A DNA stretch of 64,000 nt from a virus (Duplodnaviria; Heunggongvirae; Uroviricota; Caudoviricetes), in the IMG/VR virus record IMGVR_UViG_647533160_000003. One strand, written 5' to 3'. Below the pieces are notes generated by a model that was given only the letters and a program-made list of their open reading frames with translations, did no database searches and was not told the origin of the DNA. The number at the start of each line of letters is the position of its first letter. Position 1 is the stretch's first letter. The translations under genes were made by a program, and so were the position numbers. Positions 4,949-53,843 of the stretch are shown here, one piece after another.

Positions 4949-5030
4949 GTATCTGGATAAGTAAGTACTAATTTACTATCATTGTGGCGCTGACAGGATG
5001 TTAGCGCCTACTTATTTCAAGGATGAAACA

Positions 5031-16153: not shown

Positions 16154-16408
16154 ATGAGCTATGGTGCACAGGTATGGTCGCCATCAAGACAGGAGATGGT
16201 CGATGCGTTGGCCCCTGTTTATTACCTCGATTATTTTACTCCCTCTGGTTCTGGAAGTAGAACATATGAGGTTGAGGCGGGATTGGGAATCGACTATTAC
16301 ATAATGGACGTAACCAATGGGAAATACACAAGTCTTACGGTTTCTGGAAATACCATTTCATGGTCTGGAGCTAGTGGCAATTTAAACATATTGGTTTTTC
16401 AAAAATAA
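16154..16408 (+). CDS. hypothetical protein (84 aa)
   Basis: ORF with ATG start after tail-fibre hairpin; no recognisable motif. Confidence 0.4.
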   Translation: MSYGAQVWSPSRQEMVDALAPVYYLDYFTPSGSGSRTYEVEAGLGIDYYIMDVTNGKYTSLTVSGNTISWSGASGNLNILVFQK

Positions 16409-17016
16409 TGTACGGAAGCAAGATATATCGATCTGACGGGAAGGTCTGGATGTCTCCTTCTTTGTCTCCTATCGTTTTTCAGAGAAAGCAGGTTGTTTCT
16501 TTGTCTGGCGGGACAGAGTTTAACACCCAAATATCTCCAGATCGTTCACCGATGATTTTTGTTGCCTATTCGAAAGCTGTTTCATTAATAGCCAACAGAA
16601 TAGTGCGTAACAACCAGGTGATTTACAGTTTCGGAGGTCAGGGTAGCGATTCTAGTGCCACGATATACGTATTTTCGAAAGGTATAGCCAAAAAAGAAAC
16701 TTGGGGCATGAGTTTTTTCAATGCGCGAGGAGAGGAGATCTATAATACGGCAAATATCCCACTTTCATTTACCTTTCTTAATAATACGGAGTGGAACAGT
16801 TCTGGAGGGCATGTTTTTGATTACCCGCCAGCGATAATCCCAACATATGCAAATGTGTTCGCGGTTCCAGTACCGGGCGGGGCCATGACAATGGTTTATG
16901 GATATGCGGCATATGGAAATACTGTTAGCTCGATATTCGTAAACCAACTTAATGGCGGCCATAGTTTTAGCGTAAATGGCAGAGTACCGGTAATAAATAG
17001 AAATCTGTATAACTGA
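16408..17016 (+). CDS. hypothetical protein (202 aa), possibly tail-fibre associated
   Basis: Start overlaps preceding stop (ATAATG); lies between tail fibre and lysis genes; no motif recognised. Confidence 0.4.
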   Translation: MYGSKIYRSDGKVWMSPSLSPIVFQRKQVVSLSGGTEFNTQISPDRSPMIFVAYSKAVSLIANRIVRNNQVIYSFGGQGSDSSATIYVFSKGIAKKETWGMSFFNARGEEIYNTANIPLSFTFLNNTEWNSSGGHVFDYPPAIIPTYANVFAVPVPGGAMTMVYGYAAYGNTVSSIFVNQLNGGHSFSVNGRVPVINRNLYN

Positions 17017-17023
17017 TGAGTAA

Positions 17024-17257
17024 ATGATGAAAAGATTATTTCTAACAATAGCTGTTGTTCTCTCTCTTACTGGCTGCCAGAAATTGCCGACACCTATATG
17101 TTACGGTGAGGCTATCATTGGTGGACAGGAGACAGTCATACCCATATATGCTGTTAAAAAAGTGAACGACTATACCTTATACAAAGCGGGTAGCATCTAT
17201 AACTGGCGATGGGTAGGAGTAGGTGCTTTCTCATCAGTTCGTTGCAATGCTGAATGA
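17024..17257 (+). CDS. small lipoprotein (77 aa)
   Basis: Signal peptide with lipobox (LSLTGC) at the N-terminus. Confidence 0.5.
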   Translation: MMKRLFLTIAVVLSLTGCQKLPTPICYGEAIIGGQETVIPIYAVKKVNDYTLYKAGSIYNWRWVGVGAFSSVRCNAE

Positions 17258-17338
17258 TAGGTAAGTACACACCTACAACAATAGGGTGAAATGTGATATA
17301 AATCCGCCATCCCGATTTGACTTTTCATGGAGGAAAAC

Positions 17339-17662
17339 ATGTCGAACGAGATGGCGAGCGTTACAACAGAGCAAGTTGAGCGTATTGCCGCGATCGTTGC
17401 TCGGGAGGTTGTTGGCAAATTAGGTAAAGAGCTACGTGAAGAAATTGGCCAGGAGGTCAATGATCAGCTGAAAACCTACTTTGGTGATATGACCCCGGCG
17501 CAACATAGTATTCAACACTCCAATCTGGACAAACTCCTTAACCGGTTAGATTCCATCTCCAGTGGGTTCTTTGGCGGCATTGTTTCTAAAATAACGTCGT
17601 TCATTATTACTGCACTGCTTTTGGGGTTAGCCGCGTATGGCGTAAAAAATGGACTGCAATAA
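17339..17662 (+). CDS. putative holin-like membrane protein
   Basis: Single C-terminal TM helix (ITSFIITALLLGLAAYGV); first gene of lysis-like cluster; ATG 17339 with GGAGGA upstream. Role inferred from position only. Confidence 0.35.
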   Translation: MSNEMASVTTEQVERIAAIVAREVVGKLGKELREEIGQEVNDQLKTYFGDMTPAQHSIQHSNLDKLLNRLDSISSGFFGGIVSKITSFIITALLLGLAAYGVKNGLQ

Positions 17663-17675
17663 CAGGAGATCAAGG

Positions 17676-18368
17676 ATGAAGACTCCGAGAGGCATTCGTA
17701 ATAATAACCCCGGTAATCTTGATAAAGGATCACCGTGGCAAGGTCTGGTTGCGAATCCAGACGAACCGCGCTTTTGCACGTTTAAAGACCCTGTTTGGGG
17801 GATTCGTGCGCTGGCGGTGACTCTAATTACCTACCACGACAAACGTCGCGCAAAAGACGGCTCAAGTATCGATACCATTCGTGAAGTTATTGAACGTTGG
17901 GCACCGCCGAATGAAAACAACACTGACGCCTACATTAATGAGGTGTCTAAAGCCGTTGGTGTAACCGCAGACATGATCATCGATCTGCATGATTACGACA
18001 TTCTTCGACCTTTGGTTGAGGCAATCATTCGCCATGAGAATGGGCGAGGTCCGCTAAAAACGCTGAACACCTGGTATGCGGCAGAAGTTATTGAGGAAGG
18101 TCTGCGTCGAGCTGGCGTCGTTAAGCCGGTGAAAACCGTGAAGGCTGTTCCTGTAACTAAAGAAACAGCAGGCGCAACTGTTACAGCAGGTATTGGTCTG
18201 GCGCAGCTGGCCGATGTTATGCCGCAGGTTTCCGCTGCTATGGATAAAGCACAAGGTCATATCTCTAGTGGGGATACAGTACGCATCATCTTCGGTATTG
18301 CCACTATTGTTGTGGCTGGATTTATCGCCTGGTCGCAGGTAAGAAGACACCAGAAAGGGATGGTCTAA
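17676..18368 (+). CDS. putative cell-wall hydrolase / endolysin candidate with C-terminal membrane anchor
   Basis: Sits between holin candidate and Rz/Rz1-like pair; RGIRNNNPGN motif near N-terminus; C-terminal hydrophobic helix; AGGAG upstream of ATG 17676. Enzymatic class not established. Confidence 0.4.
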   Translation: MKTPRGIRNNNPGNLDKGSPWQGLVANPDEPRFCTFKDPVWGIRALAVTLITYHDKRRAKDGSSIDTIREVIERWAPPNENNTDAYINEVSKAVGVTADMIIDLHDYDILRPLVEAIIRHENGRGPLKTLNTWYAAEVIEEGLRRAGVVKPVKTVKAVPVTKETAGATVTAGIGLAQLADVMPQVSAAMDKAQGHISSGDTVRIIFGIATIVVAGFIAWSQVRRHQKGMV

Positions 18369-18369
18369 T

Positions 18370-18621
18370 ATGCTAGGCAGCCTGATGACAAAGCTAAAAG
18401 TTGCTTTGATTACGCTGGCTGCCGTTCTTTTCGTTCTGGTCGGCGCTTACACGATGGGCGGAAATGCGGCGCGACGAGCAATGGAAGAGAAGGCAAAACA
18501 GGAAGACAGGAAACGACTTCAAAGCACAGTGGATGTCAAAAATGAAACACTTGATGAGTTACGGCGCAAAGATGCTTCTACTGTTCATCATGAGTTGCAC
18601 AATAAGTGGTTGCGTGATTAA
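18370..18621 (+). CDS. Rz-like inner-membrane spanin
   Basis: N-terminal TM helix followed by charged helical periplasmic region; overlapping out-of-frame lipoprotein ORF. Confidence 0.5.
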   Translation: MLGSLMTKLKVALITLAAVLFVLVGAYTMGGNAARRAMEEKAKQEDRKRLQSTVDVKNETLDELRRKDASTVHHELHNKWLRD

Positions 18622-18772
18622 GCCTCAATCCTCTGGTGTGCTTTTCTGCGATGCGGCTACACCGCTATACATCAGCCGTGATGATCTCATGACCGAAGAG
18701 ACTGAAAGGGAAGTACTTTTTCACAATATGATAGGGGAGCGATTGTGTGGATGGGGCAGAAAAGTGCCATAA
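18533..18772 (+). CDS. Rz1-like outer-membrane lipoprotein spanin (overlapping frame)
   Basis: ORF in a different frame overlapping the Rz-like gene 3' end; lipoprotein signal with lipobox (ISGC); the overlapped architecture is typical of Rz/Rz1. Confidence 0.45.
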   Translation: MSKMKHLMSYGAKMLLLFIMSCTISGCVIKPQSSGVLFCDAATPLYISRDDLMTEETEREVLFHNMIGERLCGWGRKVP

Positions 18773-51125: not shown

Positions 51126-52199
51126 ATGGCAAAAGGAAAATCCGCACTGGCACTTGCTCTGAAAAAGAAAATCGGTAGCAACGACGAAATACAGAAAGTA
51201 ACTCATTGGATTGACACAGGCTTTCCTCCGTTAAACAAAGCGATTTCCGGTCGTTACGATGGCGGTTTCCCATGTGGTCGTATCGTAGAAGTATTCGGGC
51301 CGCCAAGCGCGGGGAAAACCTTTTTGGCAACGGCAGCAATGATCTCCGCTCAGAAACAAGATGGTCTGGCGGTATTCCTCGATCATGAGAACAGTTTTGA
51401 CGTTGGCCTGGCTGTCGCCAATGGTCTGAACGCAGATGAAGATGACGGCCAGTGGGTATACAAGCAGCCAGATACCTTCGAAGACTCTGTGGAGTTGATC
51501 GGCACAATACTTAAATTGGTACGTGATGAAGAGCTTATCCCTGAATCAGCACCTATCTGTATCGTGGCGGACTCACTTGCGTCTATGGTTCCGAACTCCA
51601 AAGCCGAGAAGTTCGAAAAGATGGCTGAAGGCACTGCCAAAGACAAAGATCAGCTAAACATGAATGACAATACGGCGCTGGCTCGTGCGACGAGTGCGAA
51701 CTTCCCCACTCTGGCTTTGTGGGCACGCAAATACAACGCCTGCATCATCTTCTTGAATCAGGTTCGCACAAAAATCGGTGTAATGTTTGGCGACCCTACG
51801 ACGTCACCAGGTGGCGATTCGCCGAAGTTTTACGCTTCTGTGCGCATCCGTCTCGGTGCATCGGTGATGAAGGATGGTAAAGAGAAGATCGGTCAGGACG
51901 TAGGCGCAGAGTGCATCAAAAACAAAGTTGCACCACCTTATGGCAAGTGCACCTGGAAATTCTACTTCGATCCTACTCGTGGCCTCGACGTTATCGAATC
52001 GCTCGTCGAGTACATGCTGGATGAAGGATACCTGCCAAAGAACGCAAGCGGTCGAGTAGAAATTGGCGACAAGAAATACACCAAATCACAGATCGTCGAG
52101 ATGTATCGGGAGAAGCCACTAGCTGAAATAATTGCGGCTTTGCAGGCAATCGACGACCGGAGAGCAAAAGACACCCCCACCGAGTCAGTAGAAGAGTAA
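51126..52199 (+). CDS. recA: RecA-like recombinase
   Basis: GRIVEVFGPPSAGKTFLA closely parallels the RecA Walker A region (GRIVEIYGPESSGKTTL); overall RecA-core length. Confidence 0.7.
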   Translation: MAKGKSALALALKKKIGSNDEIQKVTHWIDTGFPPLNKAISGRYDGGFPCGRIVEVFGPPSAGKTFLATAAMISAQKQDGLAVFLDHENSFDVGLAVANGLNADEDDGQWVYKQPDTFEDSVELIGTILKLVRDEELIPESAPICIVADSLASMVPNSKAEKFEKMAEGTAKDKDQLNMNDNTALARATSANFPTLALWARKYNACIIFLNQVRTKIGVMFGDPTTSPGGDSPKFYASVRIRLGASVMKDGKEKIGQDVGAECIKNKVAPPYGKCTWKFYFDPTRGLDVIESLVEYMLDEGYLPKNASGRVEIGDKKYTKSQIVEMYREKPLAEIIAALQAIDDRRAKDTPTESVEE

Positions 52200-52203
52200 A
52201 CAC

Positions 52204-52228
52204 AAGGCGTCCACAGGACGCCTTTTTT
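52204..52228 (+). terminator. rho-independent terminator
   Basis: AAGGCGTCCACAGGACGCCTTTTTT. Confidence 0.75.
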
Positions 52229-52291
52229 ATCTCTTGAAAATATATAAGTACTTACTTATTATTTTCGCATAACAACCACATAGGAAAACAC

Positions 52292-52492
52292 ATGATCAAA
52301 ATCTATCTATTGGCAGTAACCACAGGCCTTTCAGTGGCTCTCATCTACGGTTTACTGGTTCCGTCGCTGATTTCTACCAAGAGTGATTTAGCCGTCATGT
52401 TTGGAATTATCGTTGGTTTTGGTGCTCCTGTAATCGGTCTTATTGCTGGTCGTAAATTTATTAACTCATTAATCAAAGCAAAGGGGAAATAA
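52292..52492 (+). CDS. small two-helix membrane protein (66 aa)
   Basis: Two hydrophobic helices; immediately upstream of SPFH lipoprotein gene. Confidence 0.45.
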   Translation: MIKIYLLAVTTGLSVALIYGLLVPSLISTKSDLAVMFGIIVGFGAPVIGLIAGRKFINSLIKAKGK

Positions 52493-52495
52493 GTA

Positions 52496-53326
52496 ATGAA
52501 GAAAGGTTTACTTGCAGTTGCTCTGGCGGCTATTTGCACAATGGGTCTTACTGGCTGTGATCGCGTGGAGCCTGGATACGTTGGCATCAAAGTAAACAAA
52601 TTAGGTGAAGACAAAGGGATTGGTGAAGTAGTTGGCGTTGGTCGCCAATGGACAGGTCTTAACACCGAACTTTACGTATTTCCGACCTTCAAACAAATGA
52701 AGACCTACGACGAGCCGTTCACATTCCAGATGAGTGACGGTACTGCTATTGGTCACAAAATTGGCGTTGCGTATCTGGTTAATCGTGACAAGGTAACGAC
52801 GGTGTTCCAGACCTATCGCAAAGGCGTAGACGATATCACCGAATCAGATCTGCGTCAGAAAATTGCCGACTCTCTAAACCGTTTGGCCAGCCGTATGACC
52901 ACTGACTCATTTATCGACGGTGGTAAGGCACAATTGCTGGACAACGCACTGAAAGATATTCAGAAAGAGATGTCTCCGGTTGGTATTGAGGTACTGAGCC
53001 TGTCATGGGTTGGAAAGCCTGATTACCCAAAAACCGTCATTGAATCGATCAACGCCAAAGTAACGGCTAACCAGCGTACTCTGCAACGTCAGCAGGAAGT
53101 TGAACAACGTAAAGCTGAGGCGAATATGCTACGTGAACAGGCTAATGGTGAAGCTGATGCTATCCGTGCTCGTGCGCAAGCAGAAGCAGACGCCATTCGT
53201 CTGCGCGGTGAAGCTCTGCGTCAAAACCCGAACGTTATGGAACTGGAAGCCATCAATAAATGGAATGGCCAGTTACCGCAGTACATGACTCAAGGGGCTA
53301 ACACTCCTTTCATTACAGTGAAATAA
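52496..53326 (+). CDS. SPFH/band-7 (prohibitin/HflC-like) lipoprotein
   Basis: Lipoprotein signal (LTGC) then SPFH-like core and Ala/Glu/Arg-rich coiled-coil tail. Confidence 0.65.
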   Translation: MKKGLLAVALAAICTMGLTGCDRVEPGYVGIKVNKLGEDKGIGEVVGVGRQWTGLNTELYVFPTFKQMKTYDEPFTFQMSDGTAIGHKIGVAYLVNRDKVTTVFQTYRKGVDDITESDLRQKIADSLNRLASRMTTDSFIDGGKAQLLDNALKDIQKEMSPVGIEVLSLSWVGKPDYPKTVIESINAKVTANQRTLQRQQEVEQRKAEANMLREQANGEADAIRARAQAEADAIRLRGEALRQNPNVMELEAINKWNGQLPQYMTQGANTPFITVK

Positions 53327-53342: not shown

Positions 53343-53368
53343 AGGCGTCCAGTTGGACGCCTTTTTTA
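53343..53368 (+). terminator. rho-independent terminator
   Basis: AGGCGTCCAGTTGGACGCCTTTTTTA. Confidence 0.75.
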
Positions 53369-53417: not shown

Positions 53418-53843
53418 ATGACAGCTATTAAGAAACTCTACGATGCTGCAAACGTGGCTCTGGATGTTATTGATGATGAAGTAGCAAAAGGCTTTCCTGA
53501 ACCTGATTGGGCGCATCAGCTACGAAACGCTATCGCAGAAATGACCCCACCAGATCCAACCCCCGACGAGACAGACTGGCAGCGATTCATCCGTATGTAC
53601 GCTCAGGAAATAGGTCCAACGCCAACGGCAGAGCAGGCAATGCTGCTGAAATACTTCAAAGAGGCGGGAGAGGATTTACCAATTGATGACTCAGCATATT
53701 GGTTCCACTGCGCATGGCGTAAGTATGACGTGATATTCACACAAGGCATGGGAAGCAAAGATATGGTTGTGTGGCATCTACTCCATATAGACACAGCCGT
53801 TGACAGAGTTATTGAACAGTTTTTCCCTAAACAAGAAGATTGA
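53418..53843 (+). CDS. hypothetical protein (141 aa)
   Basis: Preceded by GAAAACAATTTGTTT element and conserved RBS context; no motif recognised. Confidence 0.45.
   Translation: MTAIKKLYDAANVALDVIDDEVAKGFPEPDWAHQLRNAIAEMTPPDPTPDETDWQRFIRMYAQEIGPTPTAEQAMLLKYFKEAGEDLPIDDSAYWFHCAWRKYDVIFTQGMGSKDMVVWHLLHIDTAVDRVIEQFFPKQED

Follow-up and report, generated by a model that had tools for sequence, protein, structure and literature searches.

Every solved full-length SPFH protein forms a cage or ring, and several of these assemblies surround a client, as HflK/C does FtsH, QmcA does YbbJ and stomatin does aquaporin-1. The HflK/C and prohibitin cages hold FtsH-type proteases and face the periplasm or the intermembrane space, and QmcA and YqiK have the opposite, cytoplasm-facing topology. 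In the QmcA-YbbJ and YqiK-YqiJ systems a partner gene is co-transcribed with the SPFH scaffold, and in the QmcA-YbbJ structure (PDB 8z5g) the partner lies inside the cage. Here we examine a phage locus with a related layout, in which the gene for an SPFH lipoprotein follows that for a small membrane protein. It lies at positions 52292-53326 of a 64,000-nucleotide stretch of Caudoviricetes DNA (IMG/VR record IMGVR_UViG_647533160_000003), which we refer to as a whole as the window. The initial annotation of the window had noticed this pair, and both open reading frames indeed occupy exactly these coordinates and are conserved in hundreds of records, well above what chance would produce. Judged by sequence, the pair is orthologous to gp19/gp20 of coliphage N4, that is, to PHROG 1130 and PHROG 200.

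These genes have long been annotated, both as N4 gp19/gp20 and as “SPFH domain-containing protein”, and the family itself is known. What seems not to have been described is the combination that we find here: a single-gene, lipid-anchored, periplasm-facing SPFH scaffold with a dedicated partner that is not an NfeD protein and that is fused to the scaffold in some relatives. We tentatively propose that the pair is an early-expressed phage module that conditions the envelope by fencing off a patch of inner membrane around its own partner or another client, a reading that we consider plausible, if short of probable. In the following, we weigh this reading against four others as the evidence that bears on them is presented.

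The SPFH lipoprotein and its relatives

The 276-aa product of the second gene is an SPFH protein that is synthesised as a lipoprotein precursor. It matches Pfam Band_7 (PF01145) over residues 23-209 with an E value of 2.6e-30 and a score of 106.2 bits (cut-off, 23.6), and it matches PHROG 200, “lipoprotein”, with an E value of 3e-108. The N terminus reads MKKGLLAVALAAICTMGLTGC followed by DR, i.e., MKKGLLAVALAAICTMG-LTGC-DR, in which LTGC is a lipobox of the form [LVI][ASTVI][GAS]C, and the protein is accordingly predicted to be lipidated. The Cys-Asp-Arg sequence at this site is found in 96 of 120 close homologues and in all full-length enterobacterial loci at 73% identity or more.

An AlphaFold2 model built from a 110-sequence alignment (mean pLDDT [predicted local distance difference test], 88) comprises a beta-rich SPFH1 subdomain (residues 21-95), an alpha/beta SPFH2 subdomain (97-176), a 65-residue helix (179-243), a second helix (245-255) and a C-terminal tail of low confidence. 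The initial annotation had ascribed a “coiled-coil tail” to the lipoprotein; given the 65-residue helix in the model, this tail is therefore real, and the long and short helices are the counterparts of the wall and roof helices (CC1/CC2) in SPFH cages. When the model was searched with Foldseek, the top matches were HflC (3.5e-14), PHB2, HflK and PHB1, all at approximately 1e-13 to 1e-14, with erlin, stomatin, flotillin, vault protein and QmcA (1e-7) closely behind. The Foldseek probability was 1.00 over approximately 260 to 300 aligned columns, which is nearly the full length of the protein. Thus, the structure-based comparison with HflK/C and QmcA that the initial annotation had proposed finds the SPFH fold present and ranks HflC and HflK above QmcA. 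Because the margins among these matches are small, they establish a cage-type architecture rather than a specific client: over its full length, the predicted architecture is that of cage-forming SPFH proteins.

Searches with sequence profiles gave a similar order among solved structures, with prohibitin 1 first (E 8e-10), followed by prohibitin 2 (to 3e-8), HflK (1e-6), HflC and QmcA (5e-5). The prohibitins (PDB 8rrh and 9o9z) are not only the best such match, with nearly the whole phage protein covered, but are also of similar length and place their domain on the trans side of an energy-transducing membrane. They differ in forming a eukaryotic mitochondrial hetero-oligomer without a lipoprotein signal or a small partner gene. 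HflK/HflC in complex with FtsH (PDB 7vhp, 7vhq, 7wi3, and 9cz2) share with the phage protein the SPFH body, the wall helix, the roof helix and a C-terminal tail, as well as inner-membrane anchoring and a periplasmic SPFH domain, the latter predicted in the phage case. In contrast to HflK/HflC, the phage has a single gene, a lipid anchor in place of a transmembrane helix and a dedicated two-helix partner, and identity to HflK/HflC is 16-18% (15-18% when the prohibitins are included). Scores against the NCBIfam equivalogs fall far below their cut-offs, at 18.7 bits versus 159.4 for HflK (TIGR01933) and 30.2 versus 134.4 for HflC (TIGR01932), and a single SPFH gene is present here instead of the adjacent paralogous pair that defines HflK/HflC. 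The initial description of the protein as HflK/C-type is therefore right as to its nearest relatives, which by both profile and fold are the prohibitins and HflK/HflC, and wrong if taken to mean that it is an HflK or HflC orthologue.

Having these proteins as nearest solved relatives raises the question of whether the scaffold is an HflK/C mimic acting on FtsH, which it would enclose from the periplasmic side, or whose HflK/C cage it would join or displace, so that the turnover of phage regulators, sigma-32, LpxC or membrane proteins would be altered. A predicted periplasmic topology like that of HflK/C and the prohibitins agrees with such a role, and the universal presence of FtsH fits the breadth of the SPFH family across phyla. 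Moreover, in lambdoid prophages the pair sits in the leftward early operon, which in lambda is the site of the gene for the FtsH inhibitor cIII. However, both equivalog cut-offs are missed by more than 100 bits, and the ranking of HflK/C and the prohibitins, to which identity is just 15-18%, is not specific, because erlin and stomatin score nearly as well. The dedicated partner also suggests that the primary occupant of the cage is encoded by the phage itself, and a role in lysogeny cannot hold for the many lytic carriers. We regard FtsH mimicry as the main rival of the envelope-conditioning reading and consider it unlikely as the function of the pair, although host FtsH would come first among the candidates should the cage act on a host protein at all.

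The relationship to N4 is much closer than that to any of these systems. By BLASTP, the 276-aa protein is 64% identical to N4 gp20 (E 2e-130) and the 66-aa protein 39% identical to gp19 (E 4e-7), and the two loci share gene order, tight coupling, the lipobox, the loop motif of the partner and a C-terminal KWNG-LP motif. They differ in that N4 is strictly lytic and carries the pair in its middle region, after the RNA polymerase II genes, where the two genes overlap, whereas the present pair lies between recA and a DUF7238 gene with a promoter and terminators of its own. The residue following the lipobox cysteine (position +2) is Tyr in N4 gp20, compared to Asp here.

A translated search found SPFH homologues in 413 of 50,697 phage records. 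Carriers include N4-like, rV5/PVP-SE1-like, FelixO1-like Erwinia, LUZ24-like Pseudomonas, phiCbK, crAss-like, Lak and Bacillus phages, along with the temperate phages P88 (P2/186-like), phiP27 and Stx2a phages. An exhaustive search with representatives returned 2,816 clusters at E<1e-3, including 195 at E<1e-30, and BFVD holds many more viral Band-7 proteins, none of them functionally named. The rV5-like, FelixO1-like, LUZ24-like, phiCbK, crAss-like and Lak groups are, we assume, strictly lytic and face no lysogeny decision. The initial annotation had pointed to the control of the lambda lysis-lysogeny decision by FtsH, and this idea is weakened by the identity of the pair with N4 gp19/gp20 and by the homologues in these groups; because the pair occurs in phages that we take to be strictly lytic, a dedicated role in lysis-lysogeny is unlikely to be its general function. 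Where we examined gene order, the pair appears from sequence to lie in early or middle regions: in P2/186-type phages it falls in the early operon between cox and a replication gene, and in the lambdoid phage it falls in the leftward operon beside xis/int.

Published records often label the lipoprotein “serine protease”, “transposase” or “HflK/HflC”, labels that our analysis does not support, and often leave the partner unannotated. In phiP27, for example, a 62-aa partner gene is present (locus L109, 4816-5004) and lacks annotation in the RefSeq record. Correcting these labels and restoring such missing genes is one practical outcome of the comparison. In our literature search, no phage protein demonstrated to be a member of this family turned out to have been studied functionally, and we met with annotation remarks alone (PMC13239085, PMC10269572, PMC1524935). 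One of these, from 2026, calls it unclear why a phage genome should contain such a gene (PMC13239085), and a link between HflK/C and lysogeny has already been suggested in print for another phage (PMC10269572). SPFH and band 7 are not mentioned in the phage gene-essentiality preprints that we consulted. An HflK/C-like protein of a Pasteurella multocida prophage, which may or may not be related to the present family, is reported to act as a virulence factor via TLR1/2 (PMC9872710).

Short fragments of the enterobacterial gene also turned up in unrelated assemblies, namely, a 399-bp Rhizobium contig (L012, 100%), an “archaeon” metagenome-assembled genome (L017, 61%) and Vagococcus (L027, 72%). 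Contamination or mis-binning is more likely than real occurrence in these three cases.

The two-helix partner and its fusions to the scaffold

As the initial annotation had noted, the lipoprotein gene is preceded by that of a 66-aa two-helix membrane protein. Its hydrophobic stretches, at approximately residues 4-24 and 33-53, are joined by a conserved loop (LVPSLISTKSDLA) and followed by a basic tail at the C terminus (GRKFINSLIKAKGK), and the predicted topology is N-in/C-in. It matches PHROG 1130, “membrane protein” (E 1.2e-25), and no Pfam family at E values up to 0.1. Against four relatives, its ratio of nonsynonymous to synonymous substitution rates (dN/dS) is 0.09-0.21; this purifying selection indicates that the small open reading frame is a real gene. 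All of the enterobacterial lineages that we examined have a two-helix open reading frame of 62 to 78 aa immediately upstream of the SPFH gene, separated from it by 3 nt or overlapping it by 1, 4 or 20 nt, and such a frame is also present at loci where SPFH identity is just 53% and 34%. The partners have in common the inter-helix motif (L/V)P-x-(L/M)-(I/V)-S-(A/S)-x-(S/D).

The initial annotation compared this arrangement to operons that pair an SPFH protein with an NfeD-like protein, in which case the small protein would be a cut-down NfeD that regulates the scaffold or is regulated by it, like YbbJ with QmcA. The order of the genes (partner, then SPFH) and their tight coupling across a 3-nt spacer do resemble such operons, and the location of YbbJ inside the QmcA cage offers a structural precedent. 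However, an NfeD domain is absent from the present partner, the predicted orientation of the SPFH domain is toward the periplasm and not, as in QmcA, toward the cytoplasm, and QmcA is a weaker match than the prohibitins and HflK/C. Membership of the partner in the NfeD family (PF01957, an OB-fold) is refuted outright by the lack of a Pfam match and by its length, as 66 aa leaves no room for the fold. The comparison with NfeD thus fails, and a classical SPFH-NfeD pair is highly improbable.

The gross features of the partner, with two transmembrane helices, N-in/C-in topology and a basic C-terminal tail, are also those of a class II holin, which suggests a different role for the pair, in the timing of lysis. 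In such a device, the 66-aa protein would be holin- or antiholin-like and would be sequestered by the SPFH cage to delay or tune permeabilisation. N4, which bears the orthologous pair, shows lysis inhibition (bioRxiv 10.1101/2025.11.12.688109). However, the same study, in which gp19 and gp20 go unmentioned, assigns both the lysis of N4 and the control of lysis to gp60-63 (bioRxiv 10.1101/2025.11.12.688109), and the pair belongs to the early or middle genes and not to the late ones. The partner falls in PHROG 1130 and in no holin family, and the lysis cassette of the window is 34 kb away. We consider a lysis-timing role improbable. The narrower assignment of the partner as a class II holin or pinholin was rejected, as it has no holin family match and lies outside the lysis cassette.

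We built a hidden Markov model from twelve free-standing partners and ran it on 150 representatives of the SPFH family. In 13 of these, the partner module is fused in frame to the scaffold (E 5e-14 to 4e-5), 12 times at the N terminus and once at the C terminus. A model of an N-terminal fusion (pLDDT 80) consists of a helix (residues 3-30), a four-residue loop, a second helix (35-63), a linker, a third helix (71-96) and the SPFH body. The fusions are known from protein sequences alone, and DNA searches with single fusion proteins gave no locus or one partial locus. At the present locus the small and SPFH genes share one reading frame and are three bases apart, with only TAA GTA between them, so the loss of one stop codon would fuse them. 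The occurrence of fusions at either end, together with conserved adjacency, is strong comparative evidence that partner and scaffold physically cooperate.

The partner and the scaffold also differ in their divergence from the closely related phage Cyrano. The SPFH protein is 100% identical to that of Cyrano, with a synonymous divergence (dS) of 0.03, compared to 74% identity and a dS of 0.68 for the small gene. The difference coincides with a sharply bounded patch at 52100-52500 in which identity to Cyrano is 72-86%, whereas the flanks are mostly 92-100% identical. Apart from this patch, identity in the sequences flanking the two genes is otherwise 96-100%. A partner that evolves much faster than its scaffold would be a hint toward the envelope-conditioning reading, and a hint alone, because the patch spans the 3' end of recA and the spacer as well as the entire small gene.

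Predicted membrane placement and proposed function

We next considered where the two proteins would be located. Asp at position +2 of a lipoprotein is a signal for retention in the inner membrane (Lol avoidance) in E. coli, and this residue is present here (Cys21-Asp22-Arg23), so that sorting can be predicted from the sequence. Among the 150 family representatives, approximately 117 have a lipobox-like signal and at least 13 have a plain, uncleaved N-terminal transmembrane anchor without the Cys, and the two types of anchor thus appear to be interchangeable within the family. In the N-terminal fusions, the basic linker would lie inside according to the positive-inside rule, which leaves the hairpin loop and the SPFH domain on the outside. 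On the strength of the Asp+2 lipobox, the interchangeable anchors and the topology of the fusions, we infer that the lipoprotein remains anchored to the inner membrane at its outer face and that the SPFH domain is periplasmic, the same topology as that of HflK/C and the prohibitins.

With this placement, the envelope-conditioning reading can be stated as a sequence of steps. Expression of the module would begin together with that of the early or middle phage genes. Oligomers of the lipoprotein, to judge from the monomer model and the solved cages, would enclose a patch of inner membrane in a cage or ring without gaps, and the hairpin of the partner would lie in that patch or at its rim, with the P-x-L-I-S-A-x-S/D loop toward the scaffold. 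The walled-off patch, or a client within it, could then exclude the DNA of other phages or the damage they cause, or could keep the membrane tight until lysis. Phage T4 offers a comparison in Imm and Sp, which act in superinfection exclusion, are both produced early in infection and combine a small two-helix inner-membrane protein with a membrane-anchored periplasmic protein. This is a functional analogy alone, as there is no relationship in sequence or fold and the T4 genes are not adjacent.

Several observations weigh against this proposal, some of which concern exclusion as the purpose. To our knowledge, superinfection-exclusion proteins are usually narrow in distribution, whereas the SPFH family spans phyla, and a Cor-like exclusion gene is already present elsewhere in this phage. 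Some distant homologues, those of Pseudomonas phage TL, Erwinia phage phiEa104 and phiCbK, lack an adjacent two-helix partner and have other small neighbours in its place. The divergent patch described above may be an incidental recombination tract and not the signal of an arms race. Others concern the placement. Arg at +3 may weaken retention by Asp+2, and distant phage homologues have Tyr, Glu, Ser, Asn or Gly at +2. Finally, the lipobox Cys is invariant in 18 fused relatives (P0157, P0184, and P0162 among the fusions), which means that some of them may still give rise to a separate lipoprotein, either from a start within the frame or through cleavage at the lipobox. As a side possibility, the fusions could be polyproteins that signal peptidase II cuts at the internal lipobox.

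The envelope-conditioning reading can be widened beyond the present phage. In a broader form, N4-type pairs would be a general viral device for fencing membrane in host take-over or exclusion, common to lytic and temperate phages of various bacterial phyla, with a periplasmic cage built soon after infection around FtsH or the site of DNA entry and the fast-evolving partner as the specificity or trigger subunit. We regard this generalisation as unlikely, although not negligibly so. Whichever reading applies, a compact version of the SPFH scaffold, with a partner of 66 aa in the phage studied here, is present in hundreds of phages, among them N4, a classic model. Its small size, its portability and its occurrence in tractable phages make the pair convenient for studying how SPFH cages function and how phages act on the inner membrane early in infection.

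Transcription unit and genomic setting

The surrounding sequence shows that the pair forms a separate transcription unit (Table 1): its promoter is conserved, and a terminator lies on either side. Across nine related phage-plasmids, little or no variation is seen in the promoter block that extends from the -35 hexamer over most of the -10 hexamer, whereas its flanks vary. The stem of the upstream terminator is likewise conserved in nine relatives, and in Yersinia pestis the terminator carries compensatory changes (GGCGCCC/GGGCGCC). The two terminators that bracket the cassette (52206-52222 and 53344-53361) share the stem GGCGTCC/GGACGCC, which occurs in 2 copies in the window compared to 0 expected from shuffled sequences; this common stem may be a trace of insertion or duplication of the cassette.

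Table 1. Coordinates of the SPFH-partner cassette, its regulatory elements and other genes in the window
Feature	Position	Strand	Description and basis
Small partner gene	52292..52492	+	66 aa, ATG start, two transmembrane helices; orthologue of phage N4 gp19
SPFH/Band-7 lipoprotein gene	52496..53326	+	276 aa, ATG start; orthologue of phage N4 gp20
Lipoprotein signal peptide (residues 1-20), lipobox LTGC and Asp22	52496..52561	+	Read from sequence
Lipobox Cys21 codon	52556-52558		
Asp22 (+2) codon	52559-52561		
SPFH domain proper (residues 23-209)	52562..53122	+	Pfam envelope; secondary structure of the model
Long helix (179-243) and short helix (245-255)	53030..53260	+	AlphaFold2 model; alignment to cage subunits
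C-terminal family motif KWNGQLP	53258..53278	+	W256 invariant, G258 and P261 nearly invariant in alignments
Upstream intrinsic terminator, ending the RecA unit	52204..52224	+	AAGGCGTCC-ACA-GGACGCCTT followed by a T run; terminator scan
Sigma-70-type promoter	52234..52262	+	-35 TTGAAA, 17-nt spacer, -10 TATTAT; 10/12 consensus matches
Perfect 10-bp palindrome in the promoter spacer	52245-52254		TAAGTACTTA
Ribosome-binding site of the small gene	52282-52285		AGGA; read from sequence
Downstream intrinsic terminator, ending the cassette	53343..53362	+	AGGCGTCC-AGTT-GGACGCCT followed by a T run
RecA-like recombinase gene	51126-52199		Upstream neighbour
DUF7238 gene	53418-53843		Downstream neighbour; PF23885, E 5e-38
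Holin-endolysin-spanin cassette	17327-18772		

The palindrome in the promoter spacer, allowing up to one mismatch, occurs in 10 copies in the window versus 1.6 expected, among them the promoter copy and those at 4962, 11878, 20156, 32108, 35752, 48724 and 62390. Several copies are followed by TATCAT 2-12 nt downstream. Besides the SPFH cassette, copies lie upstream of genes for a single-stranded-DNA-binding protein (SSB), ParA, ribonucleotide reductase, a tail fibre and a minor tail protein. Palindrome and TATCAT together look like a phage-specific promoter/operator family, in a manner reminiscent of the late promoters of P1, which have a palindrome near -22. Because the palindrome recurs at other phage promoters, the cassette seems to be tied into a phage-wide promoter/operator family and not to be a constitutive add-on.

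The window appears in the setting of a larger element. Compared to the Escherichia phages CMS-2020a, PhiR41_1 and Cyrano (approximately 108 kb), the region is 94-98% identical, and the annotation of Cyrano includes siphovirus structural genes, ParA, RepA, toxin-antitoxin pairs, an integrase and cobalamin genes. The window is part of an SSU5/Cyrano-type E. coli phage-plasmid of approximately 110 kb. A 111,271-bp E. coli plasmid contains the cassette at 100% identity, and of 5,426 complete E. coli genomes, 195 have at least 80% of the length of the cassette, in most cases on plasmids of approximately 100-115 kb. The cassette is also kept in 62 Yersinia plasmid records (approximately 95-102 kb, one of them from Y. 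pestis CO92), at a nucleotide identity of 79% and a protein identity of approximately 94%. We take the Y. pestis plasmids of this size to be pMT1/pFra, which is presumably not an active phage. Our search of the literature on pMT1 and Y. pestis found nothing relevant.

Retention on pMT1-type plasmids and the moron-like build of the cassette, with its own promoter and terminators, are what one would expect of a lysogenic-conversion factor, i.e., a lipoprotein that carrier cells would produce to their own advantage and not to that of the phage. It might, for instance, be displayed on the cell surface or on vesicles and be sensed there by host immunity, and the reported virulence role of the Pasteurella prophage protein would be in line with this. 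However, strictly lytic phages carry the same pair, and the P2-like and lambdoid prophage copies lie in operons that are repressed in lysogens. The promoter palindrome is moreover common to the promoters of replication and tail genes, which suggests control by the phage programme. Lysogenic conversion is thus quite improbable. A search of both proteins and the DUF7238 protein against PADLOC-DB gave no match at E values up to 0.1.

Farther upstream of the RecA-like gene lie genes for an exonuclease and a gp32-like SSB. At 357 aa, the RecA-like recombinase is much shorter here than in Cyrano, where it has 779 aa (L001, 3961-6300). PHROG 9666 is a profile of 779 positions, and its C-terminal part matches residues 65-357 of the protein in the window. 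From these alignments, the difference in length is consistent with an intein or other large insertion that is present in Cyrano and absent here. On the downstream side, a database protein of 303 aa (P0018) carries both PF01145 and PF23885 and is probably a frameshifted or misassembled read-through of two neighbouring genes. Elsewhere in the window, the tail-fibre gene is separated from the lysis cassette by three small envelope genes (16154-17257), with matches to PHROG 557 (“outer membrane protein”), PHROG 425 (“membrane associated protein”) and PHROG 1119 (Cor-type superinfection exclusion, E 2e-30).

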